IMG/VR virus record: IMGVR_UViG_3300029577_000220
Coordinates: 1 to 11,007 of that record
Reading direction: 5' to 3' (one strand)
Length of the DNA: 11,007 nucleotides
From: a virus
Taxonomy: Duplodnaviria > Heunggongvirae > Uroviricota > Caudoviricetes
The notes below the pieces were generated by a model. The model ran no database searches. It saw nothing but the letters and a program-made list of their open reading frames with translations, and was not told the origin of the DNA. Shown here in pieces: positions 1-11,007 of the stretch (positions within the stretch are counted from its first letter, which is position 1; every line of letters begins with the position of its first letter). A program made the translations under genes and the position numbers.

Positions 1-1505
1 TGGTCTCTCATCCTTCTCCACTGCTGTACAAAATATAGTCTTAGCGTGGGATAATTTCCGTTTTCCAAGCGGACCCCTTTTTGTCCTCCATTCGCCCTGC
101 AAACAGGGTAGCCAGTTGGCCGATAATCAGAAGGTGAGACGCTCATAAGCTCTTTGCTGATGGTGGCCGACAGTGCGTCTTCGGTCATTTCACCGATTCC
201 GTCTTCCATCTCGTCGAGCGCCTTTAGCGCCTCCTCCAGAGTCATTTCATCCGGCGCAGGAACAAAGCCAGACTCACTGTCTTTGGGCACTTCCGCACCA
301 TCTTTATTTTCTTTGCCTTCGACGTCTTCTTCAGTTTCCCCACGATCAGTATCGGAGTCCTCACCGCCATCACCATCGATGCCAGAGCCATAACCATCAG
401 AATCATCGGTATCTTCGCGAATACCATCGCCAGGTCTTGGAGCGCCAGTGCCATTGCTGCCATCATCATCGGTGTCAGAGTCACTTGATTTCATGCCGAT
501 AGCATCGGATTCTGGGGTGTCTCCTGACTCTTCGTGGCCTGCTTCTGTATATTTACTTTCTGTATCACTAATATCTTTAACGTGTGTAGGTAAGTCCTTA
601 TCTAATGAATCAGGCAAATCGGAATCCCCAGAATCTTCCTCTTCTGATGCATCATCTTCTCGTTCTTCCTTGTCATCGCCTTCGCCTTTGGCAGGCTTAG
701 ATGCAGAGTCACCATGAGACGGCTCGTCACCTGATTCTGGCGTTTCCTCGGACTCGTCTTTGCTCTCCGACGGCTTTCTGGCAGATGATTTAAGTTCTGG
801 TAATTTGCCCTCTGGCTTGTCTTTCATATCCTGCATGATTTGGGCTATAGCAGCAGCGACCTTCACGCAATCCTCAGTGTTCGACATATTGCGAACGGCC
901 ACGTCTATACCATGCTCCTTTAGTAAGGCTACCGGCCTCTCGATAAGGCGCCAGTGTTCTTCCATAAAATCGATGAAGGGGCTTTGTCCATCCCAGGCGC
1001 GGACGACCGGGCAAAGGAAGAATTTCAAAAACAATTCACGCTGGTCTCCGTGACAGGCTAAAACCGCTTCTGGTACTTTATTCCTGAAGTATTTGTCGAT
1101 AACCAGACTCTGTGTTGCAAGTAAATTACGCCGGGTTCCGTTAAAGACCTGCCCCATTCTGCGTTCAATAAAAACGTCTTCCAGCGCATTCCAAAGCCCC
1201 GTAGACGGAGCCTTTCCTCTTTCGCGCATCTGCATTGCGACTTTCGGTTCAGTAAAGAGAATATGGGCCACCTCATGGTCGAGAAAACCACGCACTGCGT
1301 TCATGAGGGTTGGCGACGCGTCGTCCGGTATAGATGGGATGTTTACCAGCACTGGTTCGCCGCGCCGGTTATAGCGGACATATGCTTCATTGCCTCGTTC
1401 TGCAACAGGTATTTGTTTACCTGAAAGCATCGCTACAACTCGTTTTACACAGTCGCGAAAATCCTGCACCTCTTTCAGTACAGCTTTGGTGGTTTTTTTG
1501 GACAT
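1..1505 (-). CDS. Large protein with N-terminal globular region followed by a ~200-aa D/E/S/G-rich acidic low-complexity linker; architecture resembles CobT-like (cobaltochelatase CobT / vWA-associated) proteins. Start ATG at 1503-1505; 3' end lies beyond the window start, so ~501 codons are in the window.
   Basis: Minus-strand frame set by ATG 1503-1505 is open to position 3 (translated by hand at both ends: MSKKTTKAVLKEVQDFRDCVKRVVAMLSGKQIPVAERGNEAY ... SPSDYRPTGYPVCRANGGQKGVRLENGNYPTLRLYFVQQWRRMRD). AAGGGA Shine-Dalgarno-like sequence ~8 nt upstream of the ATG. The Ser-rich plus-strand ORFs in the track (154..717) are antisense shadows of the acidic repeat region. Family assignment is from architecture only. 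Confidence 0.6.
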   Translation of the reverse strand, partial: MSKKTTKAVLKEVQDFRDCVKRVVAMLSGKQIPVAERGNEAYVRYNRRGEPVLVNIPSIPDDASPTLMNAVRGFLDHEVAHILFTEPKVAMQMRERGKAPSTGLWNALEDVFIERRMGQVFNGTRRNLLATQSLVIDKYFRNKVPEAVLACHGDQRELFLKFFLCPVVRAWDGQSPFIDFMEEHWRLIERPVALLKEHGIDVAVRNMSNTEDCVKVAAAIAQIMQDMKDKPEGKLPELKSSARKPSESKDESEETPESGDEPSHGDSASKPAKGEGDDKEEREDDASEEEDSGDSDLPDSLDKDLPTHVKDISDTESKYTEAGHEESGDTPESDAIGMKSSDSDTDDDGSNGTGAPRPGDGIREDTDDSDGYGSGIDGDGGEDSDTDRGETEEDVEGKENKDGAEVPKDSESGFVPAPDEMTLEEALKALDEMEDGIGEMTEDALSATISKELMSVSPSDYRPTGYPVCRANGGQKGVRLENGNYPTLRLYFVQQWRRMRD

Positions 1506-1558
1506 TAGAATTCCCTTGTTGTTAAAACAATTTGTTTTCTGATGTGCGTAATTTATCA

Positions 1559-1591
1559 CTGTACGAACAGGCATCTAATCTGTTCGTACAG
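1559..1591. promoter_or_regulatory. Perfect 12-bp inverted repeat CTGTACGAACAG-N9-CTGTTCGTACAG in the 5' leader/promoter region of the 1..1505 gene; candidate operator or leader stem-loop.
   Basis: Arms 1559-1570 and 1580-1591 are exact reverse complements; located 54 bp upstream of the start codon at 1505. Confidence 0.4.
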
Positions 1592-1605
1592 GCGCTAGAG
1601 AGGAT

Positions 1606-1618
1606 GGGAGGGGGGGGG
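1606..1618. repeat. Homopolymeric G tract (GGGAG followed by 8 G) between the stop of the 1619..1831 ORF and the start of the 1..1505 gene.
   Basis: Direct reading of 1601-1620: aggatgggag ggggggggtt. Confidence 0.6.
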
Positions 1619-1831
1619 TTAAATTGTGCGGACGGCTACTGAACCGCAGCCGGTATTGATGAGAGTGAAGCACTTGCCCTTTAGCTCAAAGATGTATGCG
1701 GTTGCGTCTTTCATGTCAAGTAACAAAGACTTTGTTGGCAGTTCAGTGAGTATGGCTGCTGCCCCATCATCGTCAATTGAAATCGTATGTCCGACCTCAA
1801 GGGCGATCAAATTAGAAGTTATTTTTTTCAT
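1619..1831 (-). CDS. Hypothetical small protein (70 aa), divergent from the HTH regulator gene.
   Basis: ATG at 1829-1831 (minus), weak GGATGA SD-like sequence upstream; shares a 247-bp AT-rich divergent intergenic region with the 2088..2477 gene. No recognisable domain. Confidence 0.3.
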   Translation of the reverse strand: MKKITSNLIALEVGHTISIDDDGAAAILTELPTKSLLLDMKDATAYIFELKGKCFTLINTGCGSVAVRTI

Positions 1832-2087
1832 TTCATATCATCCAACTGAACACGTAAATACCTTGCAATACTACTACCTATTGTATCAATACGGAATACT
1901 TATGTATCAAATACAACTTAGTTTTAAGTTCTTAAATGAGTTATTTTTTAGATAGTTGTCTATTAATGAAGCCTTTTGCGGTCAGTAAACCTATGTAAAA
2001 AAATAGATAAGTCTTTACAACACTAACCTTTGATGTAATATCAGTAAGCACTTACCAAATAAAATCAAAACACGCAGGTTGATAATT

Positions 2088-2477
2088 ATGGCTACCAACG
2101 AAACAAAAGAAGCTAAAGTAAGTCGCTACGCTGCTTACATTGACGCTTTAATCGCGATTTCTCCGAAAAGCCAGGCGACCATCGCGAAAGAAGCAGGCTA
2201 TAAAAACCCTAACAATCTTTCACTTATCAAGAGCGGCAAAATCCCGCTTCCGATCGACAAGGTCAGAGCGTTGGCTAAAGCATTGGATGCCGATTCGGTC
2301 CGATTGATGCTAATGGTGCTGGAAGAGCGTCATCCAGAGCTGTTAGCGTTTTTTCGCGACGAAGGCACAGCCCCTCTGACTAAAGATGAAAAACTAGTTC
2401 TGGAAGCCTTCCGTCGACGTTTCGGTGACCAACGTGGTGCGTCGGAGCGGGTTGTTGAGGCAATCAAGTCGCTATGA
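2088..2477 (+). CDS. XRE/Cro-CI-type helix-turn-helix transcriptional regulator (129 aa from ATG 2088; the track ORF begins at an upstream in-frame TTG at 2079).
   Basis: HTH_3-like segment SQATIAKEAGYKNPNNLSLIKSGKIPLPIDKVRALAKALDAD; AGGT ~9 nt upstream of ATG 2088; AT-rich upstream region; convergent with the integrase and overlapping its 3' end by 6 bp. Confidence 0.65.
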   Translation: MATNETKEAKVSRYAAYIDALIAISPKSQATIAKEAGYKNPNNLSLIKSGKIPLPIDKVRALAKALDADSVRLMLMVLEERHPELLAFFRDEGTAPLTKDEKLVLEAFRRRFGDQRGASERVVEAIKSL

Positions 2478-3575
2478 GAAATTTACACGGATTAGCTCAG
2501 TAGCGAGTCGATCTCCCTTGAACTTATGATCTATCTCCTCTAAATCCTGTTTCTCTACGATTGATGCGATGTACGCCGAAAAACTGTTTAAGGCGTCTCG
2601 CATCTCGTCTATATAATCGTGTCGATCGTATACTCGATCTATCCCCTCAAGACTGTGGTTCATAATTTTGCGGGATACCTCCTGACTTATGCCTAACGCG
2701 GGGAAGTAACTACGCGCAGTACGACGCAAATCTCGGGGAGTAAATGGCTCAAGCTCCATCAACTCTGGACGTTCTAAAATCCTTCTCAACGCCTGTGATA
2801 TGGCCACCTTAGACATTGGCACATCCTCACCCTGTTTCTTGTTTGAAGGAACAAGCCACTGGCTGCCTTTTCCGTATTTGATCAGCTCCTCAACACATTT
2901 GCGCATTAGCGGGCTTAATGGTAACGAGTGCTGGCGAGCCGATTTATTCCTCGTTCCTTGATTCCATAAATTATATTCGAGGTTGAATTCTGATCTTTTA
3001 GCTCGGAGCACTTCATCTGGTCGTCTGGCCGCTACAAGGCATAATCTGGCCGCCCACTTTGTACCCTCACATACGTTGAAGTAGTCCCATACATTCCAAA
3101 AGACCCAGACCTCTGCGTCGGTCAGTTTGCGCTCGCGCGGCGTGGGCTTCGCGCCACCGGCTACTCTGTTAAGCGACATATCGTTCAATGGGGATGTATC
3201 AATTAAGCCCTGAAATGCACACCAACTGAGAAACTGCTTCATCAGCGAGAACACACGTCTGCCCTGGACGATCTTGCCCTCAAGTATTAATGGGTTCACC
3301 AGCTGGTTGACTAAAACCCTACTAATATCACTTACTTTTACTTCACAGATATGCGGCATTACATGTATCAAAATACAATGAACAGCTATTTCAGGTCGAC
3401 GTCTCGTTATCAGCAAAGATAAGCGAGTGAATAACATGAATGCGGAAGAAAACGACATATCACCGTCGAAATTGGTGGTCGACACTGCTGACAAACCGGA
3501 AGCGCGTTCGAGATACTCGATGGCTTCTCTAGAGGTGTTTTCTGCTGCGCGTGCTTTATCAAAAGTGTTTTTCAT
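2472..3575 (-). CDS. int: Tyrosine recombinase/integrase, P4-like family, lacking the N-terminal arm-binding (DUF4102-type) domain; possibly a truncated remnant.
   Basis: C-terminal catalytic region FTPRDLRRTARSYFPALGISQEVSRKIMNHSLEGIDRVYDRHDYID matches the integrase box II / R..Y architecture; core-binding region ISRVLVNQLVNPLILEGKIVQGRRVFSLMKQFLSWCAFQGLID matches the P4-integrase core-binding pattern. The region upstream of 3575 (3576-3874) is AT-rich and non-coding, so no arm-binding domain is encoded. Confidence 0.85.
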   Translation of the reverse strand: MKNTFDKARAAENTSREAIEYLERASGLSAVSTTNFDGDMSFSSAFMLFTRLSLLITRRRPEIAVHCILIHVMPHICEVKVSDISRVLVNQLVNPLILEGKIVQGRRVFSLMKQFLSWCAFQGLIDTSPLNDMSLNRVAGGAKPTPRERKLTDAEVWVFWNVWDYFNVCEGTKWAARLCLVAARRPDEVLRAKRSEFNLEYNLWNQGTRNKSARQHSLPLSPLMRKCVEELIKYGKGSQWLVPSNKKQGEDVPMSKVAISQALRRILERPELMELEPFTPRDLRRTARSYFPALGISQEVSRKIMNHSLEGIDRVYDRHDYIDEMRDALNSFSAYIASIVEKQDLEEIDHKFKGDRLATELIRVNFS

Positions 3576-3672
3576 AGTCCACTCACTGAGTGAAGCCTGT
3601 TTTTACTGTATTTATAAACAGTATGTTAGGCCTAAGTTTTGTATGATCAACAGTAAAATAGACTGTTTTTGA

Positions 3673-3707
3673 AAATGATTCCATACCTTACAAGTATGGA
3701 ATCATTT
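3673..3707. promoter_or_regulatory. Perfect 14-bp inverted repeat AAATGATTCCATAC-N7-GTATGGAATCATTT in the integrase upstream region; candidate operator/recombinase-binding site.
   Basis: Arms 3673-3686 and 3694-3707 are exact reverse complements; the arm core GTATGGAATCAT recurs at 5326-5337 and 6346-6357. Confidence 0.45.
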
Positions 3708-3874
3708 ATATAGCTTACGTAAATTCTGAATAAATTATGTAGACAAACCATCTTAAACGCTAAATAGTAAAAAGCGCCTAATAACGCCAACTTTGGAATG
3801 CCATCTGAGCCAGATTGATGAGAATGATTTGTTAGAAGAAAAAGAATGATGAAGAAGATGACGATCGCTAAAGT

Positions 3875-4291
3875 TCAGCTAGAATGGAAACCTTCTGCGA
3901 CTTCAGCGAAGTAGCTGAGCAACCTAGTATCTCTTGCTGGCATACGATCGTGAGCTGGAGTGACTAGCCCCATCAGCAAAAAACGCCCGCTATCCCACAT
4001 GTGCTCGGTATAAACGAGATAGTGGTTTGAGGTTCGGTTGTAGTTCTCTTGCCTTGCGTTCCAGGTAAGCTGGAAATGCAAATTGACGTGAATATGCTGG
4101 ACATTAGCATCAACGGCGAACGGCGGGAAGTCAAATGGCGCATCTCGTCCAAGAAGATTAGATGGTGCGCCAGTTGATTTGTAAGTAATGAACTCGGATT
4201 TGAGCTGACTTTCTAGGTCAGGGTAAACGACAAAAGTGGGCTGAAAAAAATCATCCCACGTAACTTGACTGTATTCAGCCGTTAATGCCAT
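3875..4291 (-). CDS. YafO-family toxin (ribosome-dependent mRNA interferase type), 138 aa.
   Basis: Block-wise resemblance to E. coli YafO recalled from memory: FITYKSTGAPSNLLGRDAPFDF vs FISYKRDGVLPDIFGRDALYDD; VQHIHV vs VAHIHL; RTSNHYLVYTE vs RTNDEAHLVYCQ; FLLMGLVTPAHDRMPARD vs WLLIAILKPEPHKLARD; AEGF vs AEAF. Start ATG 4289-4291 overlaps the upstream gene's last codons by 10 nt. Confidence 0.7.
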   Translation of the reverse strand: MALTAEYSQVTWDDFFQPTFVVYPDLESQLKSEFITYKSTGAPSNLLGRDAPFDFPPFAVDANVQHIHVNLHFQLTWNARQENYNRTSNHYLVYTEHMWDSGRFLLMGLVTPAHDRMPARDTRLLSYFAEVAEGFHSS

Positions 4292-4830
4292 TTAGCCGCA
4301 GCCTTGTTGCCAGTCTCTAATAGATGGTTCATGGCTAAAAGGTTGACACCAGAGTCACGCACTACAGAAGTGCGTGTAATCTGATCAATCAGATTGAGAT
4401 AGTTTTTGGTCGCAATACTGACCATTTTAATAGCCTTAAAAAACGCAAACTCAACAGTGTTTTTTTCGTAAGACATGATGACGTCTTTTTCAGGTAACAT
4501 CAAAACAAAAGATTCTGCGATACCGGCTACATGAATAGTTTGATTCTTAATTTCTTCCGCTACTTTGATAGCAGCAAAGAAGTCAGTGTCAGCATAATGA
4601 GCAAGTTCAGCGCGGCTTGAACGCAGTTCTTTAGCCAATTCATTGAGAGCAGCTGTAAGATCACTGATGTCGGTTTTGTTGACTCTAGCGCCCATCTCAT
4701 AAACCCGTTCTACAATCGTAGGCTGACACGCAACCGCTTTGGGTTGCGGCTGGATACTGGCAAGAACCAGTGCCACTGCTGCCTGCAAATGCTGGATTTT
4801 AAATTTCACGATAGACTCCATAATCGTCAT
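4282..4830 (-). CDS. Hypothetical 182-aa protein translationally coupled to the YafO-like toxin; putative cognate antitoxin/partner, not YafN/RelB-like.
   Basis: ORF with ATG at 4828-4830; stop TAA 4282-4284 overlaps the start of the YafO-like gene; no recognisable RelB/DinJ/YafN-like sequence and roughly twice the size of YafN. Confidence 0.6.
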   Translation of the reverse strand: MTIMESIVKFKIQHLQAAVALVLASIQPQPKAVACQPTIVERVYEMGARVNKTDISDLTAALNELAKELRSSRAELAHYADTDFFAAIKVAEEIKNQTIHVAGIAESFVLMLPEKDVIMSYEKNTVEFAFFKAIKMVSIATKNYLNLIDQITRTSVVRDSGVNLLAMNHLLETGNKAAAKWH

Positions 4831-4908
4831 TTCTCGACGAAGCGTAGCATTCTACTACTGAACTTAACTATAAGCTAAAAAAAGTTGGTTGCATATGCGA
4901 CTTGATAG

Positions 4909-4929
4909 CAAAAAGGGGCCGAAGCCCCT
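4909..4929 (-). terminator. Rho-independent terminator downstream of tRNA-Asn (minus-strand sense GGGGC-UUCG-GCCCC followed by UUUUU).
   Basis: Plus strand 4910-4932 aaaaaggggccgaagcccctttg: 5-bp GC stem, UUCG tetraloop on the minus strand, T-run on the minus strand (A-run 4910-4914 on plus). Confidence 0.55.
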
Positions 4930-5005
4930 TTGGATTTTGCGCTGAAAAAAGTGTTGCTACGATGCTTAGAAGCAATGGTTAAAAAACGTCTGCCGTGTCT
5001 ATCAC

Positions 5006-5080
5006 AGCGCTGAACGGTCTGGCGACATTTGCGGAGTCTTTCGTTCGGACGGTGGTGGCGAATCCAAACCGTTCAGCGCT
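5006..5080. other. Long hairpin: 13-bp perfect inverted repeat (AGCGCTGAACGGT / ACCGTTCAGCGCT) enclosing 49 nt, immediately 3' of the tRNA; possible structured RNA or degenerate tRNA-like element.
   Basis: Arms 5006-5018 and 5068-5080 are exact reverse complements; the enclosed sequence does not fold as a cloverleaf by hand. Confidence 0.35.
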
Positions 5081-5084
5081 ATGT

Positions 5085-5159
5085 TGGCGATGGTGGGTGG
5101 ACTCGAACCACCGACCAGTTGATTAACAGTCAACCGCTCTACCACTGAGCTACACCATC
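5085..5159 (-). tRNA. tRNA-Asn (anticodon GUU), 75 nt with encoded CCA.
   Basis: Minus-strand sequence GATGGTGTAGCTCAGTGGTAGAGCGGTTGACTGTTAATCAACTGGTCGGTGGTTCGAGTCCACCCACCATCGCCA folds by hand: acceptor GATGGTG/CACCATC, D-stem GCTC/GAGC, anticodon stem GTTGA/TCAAC with loop CTGTTAA, T-stem GGTGG/CCACC with loop TTCGAGT, discriminator G, CCA. Confidence 0.85.
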
Positions 5160-5408
5160 ATTTTCGCGGCGGTACTAGCTTATGGACAACCAGGCAGCCA
5201 GAAACTTTCCCGTAACTTGCACTTTACGTTAGTGCCAGACGAGGTATGTGGCTCGCTCATATGAGCGAAGATCTCGAATCTTTCTCGGTGGTTGATTGCC
5301 GTTAGATTCTTCGATCTTATTGGATGTATGGAATCATACATGTTGTGAAGCCAGGGGCAATAAAGGCAACAATGTTTTCACTAGAGGGTTAATTAATCCT
5401 GCTTTCAC

Positions 5409-5518
5409 AACGTTGAGATCACTGAACCGATTAATGTTCAACCCAACATATTGATCAGTCGCTACAGCTATGTGGAATCGCCTGTATGATTTTAAGAAAA
5501 ATCAGTGATCTCAACGTT
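5409..5518. repeat. 17-bp perfect inverted repeat (AACGTTGAGATCACTGA ... TCAGTGATCTCAACGTT) separated by 76 bp in the non-coding region between the tRNA and the small-gene cluster; candidate structured ncRNA, origin-like element or MITE-like remnant.
   Basis: Arms 5409-5425 and 5502-5518 are exact reverse complements; no convincing ORF in 5160-5900. Confidence 0.4.
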
Positions 5519-5883
5519 ATGTGCTGACTAACCAAGTCAGCCGGGTTACGTCGCCGCTTTTAACCCAAGTATAAACGACATAAGTAATGGAAATGACGTA
5601 ACAGAATGGACGGTCAGCTGAAACCGGGATGGGTGAATGGAATGATGAAACCAACCGCCCATTCTGTTACTTCATTGAATGGGGCATGGATGGTGCAATA
5701 TGCCCTATTCTGCGTTCTGCAATCACACTCGCTCAGTGTGTCCCATTTTGGTGACGAGGCTGGAAACTGACCTCGCTGGTGTTTGGCTTCTTAGGCTACT
5801 GCCAGGTATGCATCTTCGTTTGCAGTTATATTTAACGTTCAAACAGTCGCATCTCAACGAAAACAAAGTGATCTTATACATAT

Positions 5884-5909
5884 TAGATAAGTAAGTAAAT
5901 ACTTATCTA
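5884..5909. promoter_or_regulatory. Palindromic site TAGATAAGTA-AGTAAA-TACTTATCTA overlapping the stop of the 5903..6208 gene; shares the 11-mer ATAAGTAAGTA with sites at 10811-10821 and 8582-8592 (reverse complement).
   Basis: 10-bp arms 5884-5893 and 5900-5909 are reverse complements; the 11-mer recurs at two other loci, both 5' of minus-strand genes. Confidence 0.4.
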
Positions 5910-6208
5910 TCTGTGATGCGTTTAGTTGCTATCTTTTTGATCAGGCTCCCCTTTTGTTCCGAAGTTCTCATGATGATGGCGGTAAAACGCTTCGCTTGAA
6001 TAGTGATAGTTTCGTTTTCCTTGAGTTCGCCGTAATGCGTCTCTAACAGGGACCCCAGACGCCACAGACCGTCGTCTATGCGTTTATGGCTGGCGAATCT
6101 GATCAGCAGTAGCTTTACGATTAACTGACCAATGTAAAAGGCAAATCCGAAGCCGGCCGCCACAAGGTAGGTTGCCAGCCACCAGTCGAAGGAAGTCAAA
6201 TTGCTCAT
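5903..6208 (-). CDS. Hypothetical small membrane protein (101 aa).
   Basis: ORF with ATG 6206-6208; hydrophobic segment WWLATYLVAAGFGFAFYIGQLIVKLLLI; start overlaps the stop of the upstream 50-aa ORF (ATGA). Confidence 0.5.
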   Translation of the reverse strand: MSNLTSFDWWLATYLVAAGFGFAFYIGQLIVKLLLIRFASHKRIDDGLWRLGSLLETHYGELKENETITIQAKRFTAIIMRTSEQKGSLIKKIATKRITDR

Positions 6209-6357
6209 TTTCGCACTCCCGTCTCGTGAACAACCCGATACACACGCTTACCGACACGAAGTGTTTTGGTTTGCAGTTCCTGCTGGACCAGGGCGCGGCA
6301 GATTGCGAGGCCGAGGCCCACGCCACCAGTAAAAGATAAAATGATGTATGGAATCAT
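6205..6357 (-). CDS. Hypothetical 50-aa protein with a hydrophobic N-terminus (MIPYIILSFTGGVGLGLAICRALVQQ...); not in the supplied ORF track (below the size cutoff).
   Basis: Hand translation: ATG at 6355-6357 overlaps the TGA of the 6357..6569 gene (TGATG), and its own TGA (6205-6207) overlaps the ATG of the 5903..6208 gene (ATGA). Confidence 0.3.
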   Translation of the reverse strand: MIPYIILSFTGGVGLGLAICRALVQQELQTKTLRVGKRVYRVVHETGVRK

Positions 6358-6569
6358 CAGTGCGCCCCCGCCTCAGTCAATTGCTGCAACAACAAATAAC
6401 CTTTTTCAGTCAGTTGATAGTTCTCAATACATCCCTTTGGAGAAACGTTGGCGACAAGATTCATGCGCTCCAGTTTGGCTCTGGTCTTCGGCTTCCAGTT
6501 GGCGTAGAACTCCTTCCACTTGCTGATTTCACGCAGGGTTTCCTTCTCTCGTTTACTTAACATGCTCAT
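6357..6569 (-). CDS. Hypothetical small soluble protein (70 aa), Lys/Glu-rich, possibly DNA-binding.
   Basis: ORF with ATG 6567-6569; embedded in the overlapping gene chain downstream of the ligase. Confidence 0.45.
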   Translation of the reverse strand: MSMLSKREKETLREISKWKEFYANWKPKTRAKLERMNLVANVSPKGCIENYQLTEKGYLLLQQLTEAGAH

Positions 6570-6729
6570 CCTTAATCTCCTTCAGTGTGTCCGTGATATC
6601 TACTATGCGATAAATACGACCTCGCCTTTGCATGACACCGGCTTTTACGTAATCGTGGATACAGCTGGACATAACCAGACTTCCGATAACAATGCCGACG
6701 ACTAAAAATACAAACATCCAGCCGAGCAT
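6553..6729 (-). CDS. Hypothetical 58-aa protein with an N-terminal transmembrane helix (MLGWMFVFLVVGIVIGSLVM...); not in the supplied ORF track.
   Basis: Hand translation: ATG at 6727-6729 shares one base with the ligase stop codon (TGATG); TAA at 6553-6555 lies inside the start of the next gene. Confidence 0.3.
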   Translation of the reverse strand: MLGWMFVFLVVGIVIGSLVMSSCIHDYVKAGVMQRRGRIYRIVDITDTLKEIKDEHVK

Positions 6730-8051
6730 CATTCTTTATCTCCAATACGATCTTCGGTATCTCGAAGACATTTAGGCCACTTCAGACGTGGATGACGCAA
6801 GCTACCATCTGGCGTTTTCTCATGGCAGTGAACCTCAACGATGCGTCCACGATACTTCTCCTGATTGTTCCAGATTTCATCCAGGTATTTATGCTTGATA
6901 CCGCTGGCACGAACGATGACGCCGTTCTCCAGACGAATCACTATCTTGCCTAGCGTATGCGCAAATCCAGAATCCGGATCGCCAGGCTCGAAGTCGATGA
7001 TTTCACCGTCTTCTGAATCCTCGTCTTTCAGCTTCCACCAGCTGCGGGTACGTTTGAACTCGTAAACTGAATCCGGATCTTTGCCCATCTCTCCCTCTTC
7101 ATTCTCGTCCAGTCGCTTCATGAAACGTTCGATGAAATCTTCGTGGCTATGGATGATGTAGAACGGATGAAGGTGGATATCTTGCGCATAATCTTCCACG
7201 CAAGTGTTGCGGAACAACGCCACCAGCATAGCCAGGCGCTCTTTCAGCTTCATACCGGTCTTCAGGTACTCTTTGCTTTTTGCTTGAGCACGCCACTCCG
7301 GTAAGAAGAAATCGAAAATGTGGTAAACGGCACCAATGGCTTTCACGTTCTTCTTACGAAGCGCCGACACTGACTGGTTGAATGTACCTGCAGTGCCCTC
7401 TCCATCGAAGAAGATGTGATTGAAGCCGGAGAGTCTGCCCCGCTCCAGCATGGCTGGTTTAAGGTGATCGAGTGACGTAATCGGATTGCCGGTGCGCGTC
7501 AGGAAATTGACCTCACCCTCGTCCACGATGACTTCGCAGATAACCCGGAGACCATCGAGTTTGAGACTGCCGATCATTGGCCACTTGGCCTTTGGATTTG
7601 GTTTAAATGGGTATTTGTCGCCTTTCTCCTTGTACGGAGACGCCAGCTGTACCTCAAACTTCGGAATTGGGTTTTCGAACACCTTGTTGCACAGGCTGAT
7701 GCCGACACCGGCTTTCGGATCTTTCAGCAGGAAGCGACGAAACACGTCCTGCCCGTCAGCGCACATCGAGGCAACGAGTGATTCGACAGCAGCAATAGCG
7801 ATGTTCCCGGTCAGTTCGCGCGCTGCCAGCTTCTCCAGCAGATCTACTACCTTCTGGTCGCTGGGTACGGAAGTATCGAGTGGCTCGGCCACTTTGTACT
7901 TCTTCACACCGAATCGAATGAATGGATTGAGCATTAGCGAGACCATGCTCTGTTCAAATTCATCCAGATTGGCCAGCGCCTCTTTCTTGGCGTTGGTTCC
8001 CATCGTTTTAATAGCATCCAGCTTGTGCTTTAGGGCGATCAGTTTTTCCAT
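6729..8051 (-). CDS. ATP-dependent DNA ligase, T7-like (phage-type), 440 aa, with an ~80-aa N-terminal extension.
   Basis: Nucleotidyltransferase motif I KLDGLR; motif III FFDGEG; motifs IV-V EGEMGKDPDSVYEFKRTRSWWKLK (compare T7 ligase EGLIIKDP...SGWWKMK from memory); C-terminal motif VI TPDGSLRHPRL...RD. GGAGG Shine-Dalgarno 9 nt upstream of the ATG at 8051. Confidence 0.9.
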   Translation of the reverse strand: MEKLIALKHKLDAIKTMGTNAKKEALANLDEFEQSMVSLMLNPFIRFGVKKYKVAEPLDTSVPSDQKVVDLLEKLAARELTGNIAIAAVESLVASMCADGQDVFRRFLLKDPKAGVGISLCNKVFENPIPKFEVQLASPYKEKGDKYPFKPNPKAKWPMIGSLKLDGLRVICEVIVDEGEVNFLTRTGNPITSLDHLKPAMLERGRLSGFNHIFFDGEGTAGTFNQSVSALRKKNVKAIGAVYHIFDFFLPEWRAQAKSKEYLKTGMKLKERLAMLVALFRNTCVEDYAQDIHLHPFYIIHSHEDFIERFMKRLDENEEGEMGKDPDSVYEFKRTRSWWKLKDEDSEDGEIIDFEPGDPDSGFAHTLGKIVIRLENGVIVRASGIKHKYLDEIWNNQEKYRGRIVEVHCHEKTPDGSLRHPRLKWPKCLRDTEDRIGDKE

Positions 8052-8085
8052 TAGTGTTTAACCTCCATCGGTCGCTCGGGAGTTT

Positions 8086-8574
8086 TCATGTGTTTTCTTT
8101 GGTTGCTTCTTCAATGAGTGCCGCGTACACGTCAGTGACCGGCGCCAGTGAATCGGTGGGCTTGGTTTCGGATTTAGCAGGTTCTGTTTTCTTCGTGCGA
8201 TGAATAAGACTGTCAATTGTCGCGGTGTTTCGCTTCCGGGGGAGCGTTCTGGCATGGTCGTTTTGCTCTTCCACTTCTTTGATAAGTGAAGACATATCGA
8301 TGAAGTAGAGCTGTTCGTCTTTGCGGATCTCTTCGACCATCATTTTCAGTGCCTGACATTTACCAGCAGCAATAGCCGCAGCGCAGGACTGGAACGATGT
8401 AGCCGGGAGACGTTTTTCTTTATAGGCGAGGATCGTGTGTTGGCAGACTGTATAGCTGCAATGAGCCTCATGGCCGTTGAGCTTCACTTCCGGGCAGCGC
8501 AGCGAATAACCGTTGTTTCCGGAGATAGACGGGATTTTCGACAAATCTGTTCTTGTGGACATGCTTCTAACCAT
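8086..8574 (-). CDS. Hypothetical Cys/His-rich protein (162 aa), putative zinc-binding, immediately upstream of and co-oriented with the DNA ligase.
   Basis: ORF with ATG 8572-8574; segment CPEVKLNGHEAHCSYTVCQHT plus CAAAIAAGKC; 34-bp gap to the ligase start. Confidence 0.55.
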   Translation of the reverse strand: MVRSMSTRTDLSKIPSISGNNGYSLRCPEVKLNGHEAHCSYTVCQHTILAYKEKRLPATSFQSCAAAIAAGKCQALKMMVEEIRKDEQLYFIDMSSLIKEVEEQNDHARTLPRKRNTATIDSLIHRTKKTEPAKSETKPTDSLAPVTDVYAALIEEATKENT

Positions 8575-8599
8575 AATCTTGTACTTACTTATTAATCGC

Positions 8600-8627
8600 A
8601 GTTTAAAGAAGCCCCACGAGGGGGCTA
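8600..8627 (-). terminator. Candidate rho-independent terminator after the IS-interrupted gene (minus-strand AGCCCC-CUCGU-GGGGCU followed by a U-rich tail).
   Basis: Plus strand 8610-8626 agccccacgagggggct; the A-rich stretch on plus (8601-8609) gives UCUUUAAA on the minus strand. Confidence 0.4.
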
Positions 8628-8643
8628 AATGTTTTATCGAGGC

Positions 8644-9099
8644 TTACCAGGTCGCCCAGCCAGTCATTTTGTCCTGAGCAGCTTCGAACCGGTATGGGTC
8701 CAGTAAATCGTTGGTACGATGAACGGCGTAGGATTTGGCTTCTTGTTTAATCATGGGTAATTCGTTGGCCAGACGAGCCACTTGCCCTGCAAAACTGGCG
8801 AGTACTCCGTCACATGCCTGACCCACGTCGACAATGATGCGCACCAGGTCTAAGTCGCTGCGGCACATATCGCAGATAATGCCGTATTCCACCTCACGAA
8901 TGCGCTCAACGGCTTTTTTGATATCGCCACTGACCACCAATTCCAGCAAACCAGGTGGAGTTGTCAGATCTGTTACGCGCTCGGTAACTTCAGACTGTTC
9001 GACAATACTCAGGAACGCCGCGATGGACGGGTCATCCGCCACACCAGCTCTGACTTTGAGCGTGCGAAGAGTTGCGTCGACAATATCCTCAAACCGTTC
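8644..9099 (-). pseudogene. 3' portion (151 codons) of a ~270-codon gene interrupted by IS629; product unknown.
   Basis: The track ORF 8644..9042 (GTG start) extends in frame, with no stop, up to the IS boundary at 9099 (ERFEDIVDATLRTLKVRAGV ADDPSIAAF...). The frame is continuous with the fragment at 10410..10769 once the IS and one TTC copy are removed. Confidence 0.7.
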
Positions 9100-9153
9100 T
9101 GAACCGCCCCGGAAATCCTGGAGACTAAACTCCCTGAGAAAGAGGTAAACAGG

Positions 9154-9480
9154 ATGACTAAAAATACTCGTTTTTCCCCCGAAGTCCGTCAGCGGGCGAT
9201 TCGTATGGTTCTGGAAAGTCAGGATGAATATGACTCACAGTGGGCGGCAATTTGTTCCATTGCCCCAAAGATTGGCTGTACGCCGGAGACTCTGCGTGTC
9301 TGGGTTCGCCAGCATGAGCGGGATACCGGGGGCGGTGATGGTGGGCTCACCAGCGCTGAACGTCAGCGTCTGAAAGAGCTGGAACGTGAAAATCGTGAAC
9401 TGCGCCGCAGTAACGATATCCTTCGCCAGGCTTCCGCTTATTTTGCGAAGGCGGAGTTCGACCGCCTCTGGAAAAAATGA
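9154..9480 (+). CDS. IS629 transposase OrfA (HTH and leucine-zipper part), 108 aa.
   Basis: [23 protein letters not shown]... is typical of IS629/IS1203-group OrfA; ends ...LWKK* at the A6 run 9472-9477, the expected -1 frameshift window. Confidence 0.9.
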
Positions 9481-10367
9481 TGCCACTGCTGGATAAGCTG
9501 CGTGAGCAGTACGGGGTCGGACCGGTATGCAGCGAACTGCATATTGCCCCGTCAACGTATTACCATTGTCAGCAACAGCGACATCATCCGGATAAACGCA
9601 GTGCCCGTGCGCAGCACGACGACTGGCTGAAGAGAGAGATACAGCGCGTATACGATGAAAATCATCAGGTGTACGGTGTGCGTAAAGTCTGGCGTCAGTT
9701 GTTACGGGAAGGAATCAGGGTGGCCAGATGTACAGTGGCACGTCTCATGGCGGTTATGGGACTTGCCGGTGTTCTCCGGGGTAAAAAGGTCCGTACGACC
9801 ATCAGCCGGAAAGCCGTTGCCGCAGGCGACCGCGTAAACCGTCAGTTCGTGGCAGAACGACCTGACCAGCTGTGGGTGGCTGATTTTACTTACGTCAGCA
9901 CATGGCAGGGCTTCGTCTATGTGGCGTTTATCATTGATGTGTTTGCCGGATACATCGTGGGGTGGCGGGTCTCATCGTCTATGGAAACGACATTCGTGCT
10001 GGATGCGCTGGAGCAGGCGTTGTGGGCCCGTCGTCCGTCTGGCACCATCCATCACAGCGATAAAGGCTCTCAGTATGTGTCACTGGCCTATACGGAGCGA
10101 CTAAAAGAAGCCGGATTACTGGCATCAACAGGGAGTACAGGCGACTCGTATGACAACGCGATGGCTGAGAGCATCAATGGTCTTTACAAAGCGGAGGTAA
10201 TACACCGTAAGAGCTGGAAAAACCGTGCAGAAGTGGAACTGGCCACACTAACGTGGGTGGACTGGTATAACAATCGACGATTGCTGGGAAGGCTGGGCCA
10301 TACTCCTCCGGCAGAAGCAGAAAAAGCTTATTATGCTTCCATCGGAAACGATGATCTGGCAGCCTGA
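9477..10367 (+). CDS. IS629 transposase OrfB (DDE/rve catalytic domain), 296 aa; expressed as an OrfAB fusion by -1 frameshifting.
   Basis: rve-type motifs [58 protein letters not shown]; overlaps orfA by 4 nt in the -1 frame. Confidence 0.9.
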
Positions 10368-10409
10368 GTTCACAGATAAAACACTCTCCAGGAAACCCGG
10401 GGCGGTTCA

Positions 10410-10769
10410 TTCACCTTCATCGCACACAGTCTGATTGGTGTAGACAGTCTGATTAGTGTAGACAATGCGACCGTCGTACCATGCACCGATACTCACTTCG
10501 ACCGTTGCGTCTTTCATCTCGCGAGAGAACGCCACAAGTGCCGCGCGTTTCTGCTTAACACCTGACAACTCCGGGGACTCTCCAAAACGAACCCAGACCT
10601 GCATGTATTTCGAGCCTTCCGAAAGAGGTACGGTGCTCACGGACGTGGCGATATGCTCCAGTGCAGTTTGGATCGCCTCGTCGATAATCTTCTGGCGCTC
10701 TTCTGTATCAATTTCTACGCCGGATTTGTCGATGATGTCGCAGACTAACTTCTGAAATTCTTCTTTCAT
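10410..10769 (-). pseudogene. 5' portion (120 codons) of the IS629-interrupted gene; its promoter and RBS are intact.
   Basis: ATG at 10767-10769 with AGGAG 7 nt upstream; the ORF runs into the IS629 right end, where it meets a stop supplied by the IS terminal TGA (10407-10409). Confidence 0.7.
10428..10463. repeat. 18-bp tandem duplication (AGTCTGATTGGTGTAGAC / AGTCTGATTAGTGTAGAC) inside the interrupted gene, encoding VYTNQT twice.
   Basis: Units 10428-10445 and 10446-10463 differ at one position; in frame. Confidence 0.6.
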
Positions 10770-10809
10770 AGCAACTCCTGACTAACAGATGAAAATATTC
10801 TTTCAGAAA

Positions 10810-10831
10810 AATAAGTAAGTATCTACTTATT
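10810..10831. promoter_or_regulatory. Palindromic site AATAAGTA-AGTATC-TACTTATT in the promoter region of the interrupted gene; same motif family as 5884-5909.
   Basis: 8-bp arms are reverse complements; contains the 11-mer ATAAGTAAGTA; ~40 bp upstream of the start at 10769. Confidence 0.4.
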
Positions 10832-10861
10832 ATATCGGGCACAATAGTCTGCTATACGAAG

Positions 10862-11007
10862 AAGCCAGGCGTAAAAACTACTCGGATGCACATCCAGCAC
10901 CCGACAAAGCAGTCGGACAGGCCAGCAATAGGTGTTGCATTGACAGATTGAATCTACAACGGCTTTTTTTAATATGTCCCGTTCGTCGGTAACCCGCTTC
11001 AGCTCTT
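10862..11007 (-). mobile_element. Fragment of a second, different IS3-family element (OrfA C-terminus to OrfB N-terminus junction region); continues beyond the right window edge; inner boundary uncertain (between ~10833 and ~10865).
   Basis: Minus-strand translation ELKRVTDERDILKKAVVDSICQCNTYCWPVRLLCRVLDVHPSSFYAW shows the OrfA-type ...ILKKA and the OrfB-type LCRVL.V..S.(Y/F).W motif (compare IS3 MCRVLRVARSGWYTW from memory); A7 run at 10964-10970 lies at the expected frameshift window. Not IS629 (sequence differs from the in-window copy). Confidence 0.45.

Follow-up and report, generated by a model that had tools for sequence, protein, structure and literature searches.

A dispersed 20-bp dyad of SSU5-type phage-plasmids as a candidate operator family of a putative prophage repressor

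What do near-identical palindromes do when they recur between the genes of a phage that persists as a plasmid? The question was raised by an 11,007-nt stretch of viral DNA (Duplodnaviria; Heunggongvirae; Uroviricota; Caudoviricetes), positions 1 to 11,007 of IMG/VR virus record IMGVR_UViG_3300029577_000220, referred to here in its full length as the window, which belongs to an SSU5-type phage-plasmid of Escherichia coli. In an initial annotation, a family of palindromes had been described at three loci between 5884 and 10831 and had been taken for an operator or an element-specific promoter consensus. The reading favoured here, with moderate confidence and from sequence comparison, is that the family forms the dispersed operator regulon of a prophage repressor, acting by promoter occlusion, possibly as a roadblock, and by autoregulation. 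The window is 99.7% identical to plasmid pEC21Z137-115K (NZ_CP101235.1, IncFIB, non-mobilizable) across 87% of its length, an insertion sequence accounting for the part that is not matched, and over positions 5000-9100 the identity is 92% to Salmonella phage SSU5 and 78% to the E. coli phage-plasmid Cyrano. The minus strand is the main gene direction in the window.

The three sequences were found by direct reading of the window where they had been described. The palindrome at 5884-5909 reads TAGATAAGTA-AGTAAA-TACTTATCTA with perfect arms of 10 nt, the one at 10810-10831 reads AATAAGTA-AGTATC-TACTTATT with perfect arms of 8 nt, and the 11-mer ATAAGTAAGTA recurs in reverse orientation at 8582-8592, where its reverse complement TACTTACTTAT is read. 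Exact matches to the 11-mer number three in the window, where 0.10 would be expected, and 1 of 200 shuffles reached that count. Two of the three copies stand 5′ of minus-strand genes, as had been noted: the 10810 copy lies 40 nt before an ATG, and the 8582 copy lies 19 nt before the Cys/His protein ATG at 8562 (7 nt before an alternative ATG at 8574). The 5884 copy is outside any 5′ region and overlaps the stop codon (5903-5905) of an open reading frame (ORF) at 5903-6208 on the minus strand. The 11-mer, earlier taken as the unit of the motif, is present but is only one half of a 20-bp dyad, ATAAGTAAGT followed directly by ACTTACTTAT, whose most conserved bases form the arms of a 7-N6-7 layout, ATA[A/G]GTA-N6-TAC[C/T]TAT, with T6 and A15 as invariant positions. 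The family itself is real, but its description as three loci had to be revised: when window copies were scored with a weight matrix, five were obtained (Table 1), the 8582 copy being a half-site (12.1 bits versus 26-27) and the copies at 2040-2059 and 586-605 having been missed.

Matches to the 11-mer with one mismatch numbered 23 in pEC21Z137-115K versus ~1 expected, and 20-mer windows at ≤5 mismatches numbered 28 in SSU5, 31 in pEC21Z137-115K, and 0 in 20 first-order Markov genomes. The weight matrix was iterated and symmetrised and was built on SSU5 and pEC21Z137-115K, two of the genomes scored, with Cyrano outside the build; at ≥11 bits it gave 28 sites in SSU5, 31 in pEC21Z137-115K, and 31 in Cyrano, and 0-2 in the SSU5 and pEC21Z137-115K Markov null genomes. 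The Markov null, Cyrano, Klebsiella, Yersinia pestis pMT1, and de novo word statistics served as controls on the matrix. Motif words ranked first in an 8-mer over-representation test in both SSU5 and Klebsiella pKP301b, and all 18 sites of pMT1 lie in its phage-derived backbone. Cargo holds no site of ≥18 bits; this applies to pEC21Z137-115K, with its fimbrial operon and its restriction-type helicase/methyltransferase module, and to caf1/ymt of pMT1, where none of the 18 sites lies. A chance origin of the family was ruled out by the shuffles and the Markov genomes, and it is close to certain that the family exists and is under selection.

Site positions are orthologous across three genomes of 78-92% identity. 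The 5887 site is identical at 20 of 20 positions in SSU5 (41773), pEC21Z137-115K (30200), and Cyrano (38252), with diverged flanks; the 10811 site has orthologues at SSU5 38178, pEC21Z137-115K 33811, and Cyrano 34730, in which the arms are kept and the spacer differs. The half-site 8573-8592 is matched at SSU5 39087 and pEC21Z137-115K 32886. Orthologues of the coding-region site 586-605 were located at SSU5 43661, pEC21Z137-115K 90280 (reverse-complement coordinates), and pMT1 90191.

A lack of enrichment between genes in the complete genome had been set beforehand as the outcome that would refute the idea, and this outcome was not seen. In SSU5, 24 of 28 sites were intergenic, in 11.6% of the genome (binomial p = 4e-19); in pEC21Z137-115K the figure was 27 of 31, a fraction inflated by an incomplete PLSDB gene table, with p ~1e-18 for both genomes. 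Nearly all sites stand between co-directional lytic-strand genes or in divergent regions, and gaps of ≥40 nt hold a site in 16-20 of 44-56 cases on the lytic strand and in 0 of 3-7 cases on the opposite strand. The modules with sites are those for replication, nucleotide metabolism, the virion, and lysis. The sites are dispersed singly across the whole backbone with none beside repA, and plasmid iterons or centromere repeats were ruled out, as the sites are not clustered direct repeats beside rep or par genes. Iterons of apparently typical kind were seen for comparison in the Moellerella plasmid pNX2019-MW3 (locus L099, 41900-43552), where at least eight direct repeats CTCTCTATAG(C/T)GGTC flank and enter repB. 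Several sites are found 1-17 nt from a start codon, or have a stop codon on one side and a terminator-like hairpin on the other; three conserved sites precede such hairpins by 7-11 nt and other sites follow them, so that the direction is inconsistent.

These positions, and the palindrome itself, raise the question of whether the motif acts as DNA or as RNA. As an RNA or single-stranded DNA hairpin in polycistronic transcripts, it would serve as a processing, stabilising, or terminator/antiterminator signal, and the 5884-5909 copy does fold into a stable 10-bp hairpin (-11.7 kcal/mol, z = -4.3) right after a stop codon, just as the three conserved sites before terminator-like hairpins would fit such a role. 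Arm-to-arm Watson-Crick complementarity over 62 distinct site sequences was, however, 0.716 versus 0.715 when right halves were shuffled among sites, and the palindromy thus reflects two arms that each fit one half-site rather than a pairing constraint. Mismatches were as often G.T, the wobble of a sense RNA (47), as A.C, that of an antisense RNA (49; n = 62 distinct sites). Folding is weak or absent in the four remaining window copies, a U-tract is lacking, no Rfam family matches the sites, and primary sequence is kept over some 30 sites, even at the half-site 8573-8592. An RNA hairpin, terminator, or antiterminator was rejected on the absent covariation, the symmetric wobble, the poor folding of four of five copies, the missing Rfam match, and the missing U-tract, and the hairpin explanation is considered very improbable. 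The motif has no strand bias and carries information in both arms of the symmetrised matrix; on these sequence statistics, it is likely to be a protein-binding DNA site with a dimeric binder.

The relation of the sites to promoters was assessed with a simple, crude sigma-70 model, and all promoters given here are predictions. The best overlapping sigma-70 score averaged 6.9 bits in the gene direction versus 5.2-5.4 bits against it (Wilcoxon p 0.01-0.03 per genome), and because the motif is symmetric, the direction against the genes is a fair control; in SSU5, the mean score was 6.85 versus 4.18 +/- 0.48 with shuffled flanks. Promoter-like sequences scoring ≥9 bits overlap 7-9 of 21-25 sites per genome. 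At SSU5 3544 and 55695, the dyad fills the spacer of a near-consensus TTGAAA-[17 nt of motif]-TATGAT or TATCAT. A -10-like hexamer made of the terminal TAT of the motif plus CAT/GAT (motif position 18) is the best match at 13 of 70 sites, the rest being spread over more than 20 registers; a fixed sigma-70 register, in which the motif would be part of a promoter consensus, was therefore discarded, since the 19% of sites with a -10 at position 18 owe much to the motif's own TAT. At the 5887 site, the predicted promoter overlaps the right arm and points to a ~720-nt non-coding stretch and tRNA-Asn; its hexamers and register are equal in SSU5, pEC21Z137-115K, and Cyrano, and a separate built-in scan did not list it.

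The same sites could instead be activator-dependent or element-specific promoters, at which a phage activator or sigma-like factor would bind the dyad, recruit host RNA polymerase to many promoters without a -35, in the manner of the Lpa-dependent late promoters of P1 or the C-dependent ones of Mu, and switch the lytic genes on. This would suit sites upstream of lytic-direction genes, often near the upstream stop codon and 30-60 nt before the next start, with the TAT plus CAT/GAT hexamer at the 13 sites named and no recognisable -35 at most sites; a new promoter is to be expected after a terminator-like hairpin, and some sites do stand there, and SSU5 keeps all its sites without the helix-turn-helix (HTH) cassette described below. 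Such a promoter should nevertheless hold a fixed register to its -10-like hexamers, which fall into more than 20 registers, and the motif is symmetric while the genes run one way. Near-consensus TTGAAA-17-TATCAT or TATGAT sites should need no activator, no activator candidate was identified, and copies 1-17 nt away from a start codon or directly ahead of a terminator-like hairpin are as awkward for this explanation as the copy at ~-3 to +17 of the HTH-gene promoter, a position typical of repression. Activation is accordingly regarded as unlikely. The variable overlap with core promoter elements fits occlusion by a repressor and not an activator of fixed geometry. Of the two functions first proposed, the operator is thus better supported, through the variable-register overlap and the HTH-promoter copy, and the promoter consensus is weakened by the lack of fixed geometry, the symmetry, and the copies 1-17 nt from start codons.

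A candidate for the repressor is encoded in the window, namely a weakly XRE-like HTH protein of 129 amino acids (PHROG 8 'transcriptional regulator', 1e-10; HTH_3/HTH_31 below cut-off). Its sequence gave no match in the PDB, no S24 peptidase domain was detected by Pfam-type profile searches, and a single-sequence AlphaFold model was of low confidence (predicted local distance difference test 57) and was not used. The homologue in Cyrano, CYRAN_45, is annotated as 'putative repressor' and is expressed ~10-fold above background in the Cyrano lysogen. Cyrano, whose lysogens include E. coli LF82, can be induced with ciprofloxacin (PMC9928086). By tblastn, the HTH gene was found in 1002 plasmid records, adjoined by the integrase gene in all of them, and the counts of HTH gene versus core gene were 348/347 in Klebsiella, 230/219 in Escherichia, 92/91 in Enterobacter, and 49/49 in Salmonella. 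The variants at residues ~40-52, the recognition helix, are NPNNLSLIKSGK, NPNILSLIKKGR, and RPNVLSMIKSGE.

Directly 3′ of the predicted HTH-gene promoter, TTTACA-16-TAATAT, the sequence C(A/G)GTAAG(C/T)ACTTACC stands in all lineages examined and corresponds in the window to the core of the 2040-2059 dyad. Across 36 distinct upstream sequences drawn from 80 viral contigs, and in Klebsiella and Cyrano too, the promoter and dyad block stays the same, and the leader downstream varies; the 80 contigs are HTH relatives at ≥60% identity and were used for this promoter footprint, not for distant co-variation. The dyad occupies ~-3 to +17 of the predicted promoter, 28 nt before the HTH start codon. This is the classical autoregulatory arrangement, and the copy is a candidate autoregulatory operator.

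A contrast between lineages bears on the pairing of protein and motif. Acinetobacter plasmid pPB364_1 is syntenic and encodes an HTH protein 39% identical to that of the window, and its top over-represented words combine into a palindrome that is analogous but of another sequence, ATCAGTCAGTACTGACTGAT, with 15 copies at ≤6 mismatches, most of them intergenic and three less than 600 bp upstream of the HTH gene. Enterobacterial lineages, whose HTH proteins are 64-100% identical, share the TAAG-type motif, and the Acinetobacter lineage has the TCAG type; the motif therefore follows the element, and this one independent contrast gives the HTH-motif pairing good, if circumstantial, support. In the Moellerella relative, the top words were the repB iterons and a dispersed dyad was not detected, so that it gave no third co-variation point.

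The motif may alternatively be the site of another protein, either a core-encoded Cro-like or ParB-like protein or a host factor, and may serve DNA organisation, partition, division control, recombination, or the marking of module boundaries. The statistics make the site of a dimeric protein likely but do not tell which protein, SSU5 keeps its sites without the HTH gene, the elements encode several ParB-like proteins, and the cargo insertions of pEC21Z137-115K are flanked by sites. Two host factors offer leads: the core GTAAGTACTTAC resembles the SlmA site GTGAGTACTCAC, and the arms fit the NarL heptamer TACYYMT. Host factors SlmA and NarL are disfavoured because the motif changes with the element, TCAG replacing TAAG in the Acinetobacter relative; moreover, the best-conserved positions include ones beyond the 12-bp SlmA-like core, and arm orientation and spacing are unlike NarL 7-2-7 sites. 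The bias to promoter-like sequence in the gene direction and the copy on the repressor promoter point to transcription, and a site for such another protein is considered quite unlikely.

Under the repressor reading, an element-encoded dimeric DNA-binding protein would recognise each arm of the 20-bp dyad, the CI-like HTH protein (window 2088-2477) being its most likely identity. The bound dimer would keep RNA polymerase off lytic promoters where the dyad overlaps the -35, the spacer, or the -10, and away from promoters it may act as a roadblock to read-through. The ~30 copies in each ~105-kb genome would silence the entire set of lytic genes during plasmid maintenance, and negative autoregulation would come from the lower-affinity copy on the start site of the promoter of the repressor gene itself. 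The identity of the binder, repression through binding, and the roadblock are what we infer in this scheme.

Several observations weigh against the repressor reading. Only about one third of sites overlap a good promoter-like sequence, and several sites are so placed that repression of initiation would make little sense, a roadblock being suggested for them by analogy. At the HTH promoter, the dyad is missing the outer ATA/TAT, the best-conserved bases of the other copies. SSU5, which was isolated as a free phage, is without the HTH-integrase cassette and yet has 28 good sites, which either a recent deletion or a different binder, encoded in the core, would explain. The assignment of the HTH protein draws on proximity, autoregulation logic, and one co-variation contrast in which the whole element also diverged. 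The sites are orthologous in the three enterobacterial genomes, cross-genome statistics are hence not independent, and the intergenic fraction of pEC21Z137-115K is inflated for the reason given above. HTH and integrase genes are present in nearly all plasmid-state relatives, and SSU5 may be a repressor-less, effectively virulent derivative. A comparison of SSU5 42597-42760 with window 1560-5080 places the missing cassette between tRNA-Asn and the cobT-like gene.

The features of the window and of the repeats seen beside the main motif are collected in Table 1.

Table 1. Positions of dyad copies, predicted promoters, genes, and other repeats (window coordinates unless a genome is named)
Feature	Position	Strand	Remarks
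Full dyad ATAAGTAAGTAAATACTTAT	5887..5906	no strand	27.3 bits; extended perfect palindrome 5884-5909
Full dyad ATAAGTAAGTATCTACTTAT	10811..10830	no strand	26.1 bits; extended 10810-10831; 40 nt 5′ of the ATG of the SSU5_042 homologue disrupted by the insertion sequence
Dyad-like site GTAGGTAAGTCCTTATCTAA	586..605	no strand	20.2 bits; inside cobT-like coding sequence; function uncertain
Weaker dyad ATCAGTAAGCACTTACCAAA	2040..2059	no strand	19.4 bits; core GTAAGCACTTAC at 2044-2055
Half-site	8573..8592	no strand	12.1 bits whole, 16.4 bits half; strong arm ATAAGTAAGT at 8592-8583 (minus), second arm degenerate
Predicted sigma-70-like promoter at 5887 site	5871..5899	minus	-35 TTTACT 5899-5894, spacer 17 nt, -10 TAAGAT 5876-5871; 8.9 bits
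Predicted sigma-70-like HTH-gene promoter	2014..2041	plus	TTTACA 2014-2019, 16-nt spacer, TAATAT 2036-2041
cobT-like gene ('porphyrin biosynthesis protein')	end 1507	minus	ATG at 1507
70-amino-acid ORF	1619-1831		in cassette absent from SSU5
HTH protein, putative binder	2088-2477	plus	129 amino acids, weakly XRE-like; in cassette absent from SSU5; overlaps end of integrase gene 2472-3575 (minus)
Integrase	2472-3575	minus	in cassette absent from SSU5; end of gene overlapped by HTH gene
YafO toxin	3875-4291		in cassette absent from SSU5
ORF	4282-4830		in cassette absent from SSU5
tRNA-Asn	5085-5159		
DNA ligase	6729-8051		next to a run of small ORFs in the gene order
Cys/His protein	8086-8562	minus	ATG 8562, alternative ATG 8574
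SSU5_042 homologue, split by insertion sequence	8644-9042 + 10407-10769	minus	both halves PHROG 4248; ATG 10769
IS3-family insertion sequence, 1310 bp	9100-10409		orfA 9154-9480, orfB 9477-10367
Second-family copies	1525-1537; SSU5 81, 30449, 42729, 80773-94525	minus (window copy)	window copy 5′ of cobT-like ATG 1507
AT-rich hairpin repeat	SSU5 33469, 78319, 103274; pEC21Z137-115K 44813, 74757, 99975		outside window

The window proteins beside sites (the Cys/His protein and ORFs of 70, 59, 50, and 101 amino acids) had no match in Pfam and matched only PHROG families of unknown function. The half-site 8573-8592 comes after a terminator-like hairpin at 8610-8626. The IS3-family element contains an ALIL frameshift pseudoknot (9435-9551, 121 bits, Rfam) and is bordered by a 3-bp target duplication, TTC, at 9097-9099 and 10410-10412; its ends are ones that we take to resemble IS629/IS1203, and pEC21Z137-115K, the closest plasmid, lacks the element at this position. 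Gene annotation is absent in SSU5, pEC21Z137-115K, and Cyrano for the ~720 nt between tRNA-Asn and the 5884 palindrome (5160-5883), which hold a 17-bp inverted repeat, AACGTTGAGATCACTGA, at 5409-5425 and 5502-5518. An Rfam search of 5160-5883 gave a chance-level match only (beta_tmRNA, E = 0.33), and the stretch may represent a long leader of the tRNA or an RNA without annotation; the matching region of Cyrano has three tRNAs. A further palindrome, TGTATC-A(1-4)-ATACA, was noted at 1882-1892, 1903-1915, and 3364-3377, with two copies where ORF 1619-1831 and the HTH gene diverge and the third in the 5′ part of the integrase gene. The core of the first, TATCAATAC, is kept in Cyrano and the second is kept only partly; these palindromes may serve as another operator, or as arm-type sites for a recombinase.

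A second dispersed family was observed in the same elements. It consists of a dyad, AAACAA-N-TTGTTT, with a conserved one-sided flank (consensus tgcGATAATaACaCCAacAAGAAAACAAnTTGTTTAAgGAg..ATG) and has 14 copies in SSU5 (0.18 expected), 14 in pEC21Z137-115K, and 11 in Cyrano, nearly all intergenic. Most copies stop 11-25 nt short of a start codon, immediately 5′ of the Shine-Dalgarno sequence, and follow a -10-like GATAAT at a distance of ~16 nt. The main motif and the second family stand in different intergenic gaps, none of the gaps of ≥40 nt holding both, and together they fill about half. A FljA-family protein (PF03614 'Repressor of phase-1 flagellin', E = 3e-81) is encoded at SSU5_121 (96897-97343), at pEC21Z137-115K 80629-81156, and as CYRAN_114; FljA-type proteins block translation of fliC mRNA (PMC2652032). 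The Salmonella fliC 5′ untranslated region (UTR) reads ..CCCAATAACATCAAGTTGTAATTGATAAGGAAAAGATCATG (compared loci L103 2690-2740 and L107) and has ATAACAyCAA, CAAGTTGT, and AAGGA in common with the second family, which suggests that the second family comprises mRNA 5′-UTR operators for the phage FljA-like protein, maybe acting on host flagellin too. The FljA-like protein SSU5_121 was set aside as binder of the main motif, as FljA acts on mRNA with an orientation and the motif has none; it suits the second family better. It is a tentative and rather doubtful extension that in SSU5-type elements, among them the pHCM2-type plasmids of S. Typhi and pMT1 of Y. pestis, two dispersed regulons would keep ~100 kb of lytic genes silent, of which one would consist of ~30 HTH-bound DNA operators (promoter and roadblock) and the other of 11-14 oriented 5′-UTR elements (..GATAAT..ACACCAACAAGAAAACAAnTTGTTTAAGGAG..ATG) bound on mRNA by the FljA-family protein. 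Separately, a long AT-rich hairpin repeat flanked by CCTGCTTCCGTATATA ... TATATACGGAAGCAGG was seen in three intergenic copies per genome, one of them at the SSU5 genome end, and its loop weakly resembles the main motif.

The element family covers plasmids of Klebsiella, E. coli, Enterobacter, and Salmonella as well as Y. pestis pMT1. An account of lysis-lysogeny control in SSU5-type phage-plasmids was not found in the searchable literature, nor was one of the motif or of SSU5-family operators; a full-text search with the motif string gave unrelated matches only, subscription papers such as the phage D6/SSU5 supercluster paper lying outside the search. With an operator consensus, a candidate repressor, and a map of ~30 sites, the silence of these elements as plasmids becomes testable, as does the cause of the lytic behaviour of SSU5, which is without the repressor cassette. 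The TAAG-type and TCAG-type motifs could define immunity groups, and backbone promoters able to drive cargo such as resistance genes and fimbriae can now be addressed.

Among known systems, the lambda, 434, and P22 CI-Cro operators are likewise dyads of 14-20 bp. They bind an HTH dimer and overlap core promoter elements, as is proposed for the sites here, and their repressor gene is autoregulated through a copy at its own promoter and is divergent from a small lytic-direction gene (window 1619-1831 here). Lambdoid operators, however, are confined to one or two immunity regions in adjacent sets of 3+3, whereas here a single copy at the repressor promoter is accompanied by ~30 dispersed ones, and the 129-amino-acid HTH protein differs in that no S24 peptidase domain was detected. 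The Lpa-dependent late promoters of P1 combine a -10 hexamer with a 9-bp inverted repeat near -22. They share with the dyad family a palindrome at or upstream of the -10 at many promoters without a -35, and a -10 at motif position 18 would put the dyad centre at ~-19.5; unlike them, the family keeps this geometry at 13 of 70 sites only and also stands where no promoter fits, and no search for an Lpa homologue was made. P1 C1 operators are asymmetric 17-mers, about half as numerous as the dyads. They too belong to a ~100-kb enterobacterial plasmid prophage in which one repressor-type site family is scattered at many transcription units. In P1, these operators have no part in late-gene control, the late genes using Lpa promoters, whereas the symmetric 20-mer is found in early-type as well as virion and lysis modules; the sites show no similarity in sequence, and as far as tested (PDB and profile searches), the HTH protein is unrelated to C1. 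C1 operator sites and Lpa promoters have been mapped over the P1 genome (cited in PMC8201110).

The stoperators of cluster A mycobacteriophages (L5, Bxb1) number 20-30 repressor sites per genome in lytic genes, chiefly in short gaps between genes; some are genuine promoter operators, most have no association with promoters, and the motif co-varies with the repressor among relatives (PMC6550527). The dyad family agrees in its count of 28-31, its placement in short intergenic spaces, and the changed motif of the Acinetobacter relative. A stoperator measures 13-14 bp, has no dyad symmetry, follows the direction of transcription, and is bound by the repressor as a monomer (PMC6550527); the dyad family, a 20-bp dyad without orientation in a host of another phylum and with unrelated proteins, is hence no member, and by analogy it may work like a stoperator. 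As dispersed repressor sites are known from P1 and mycobacteriophage L5, the family extends a known kind and introduces no new principle; on this comparison, it is closest in its presumed action to P1 C1 operators and cluster A stoperators and is a member of neither.

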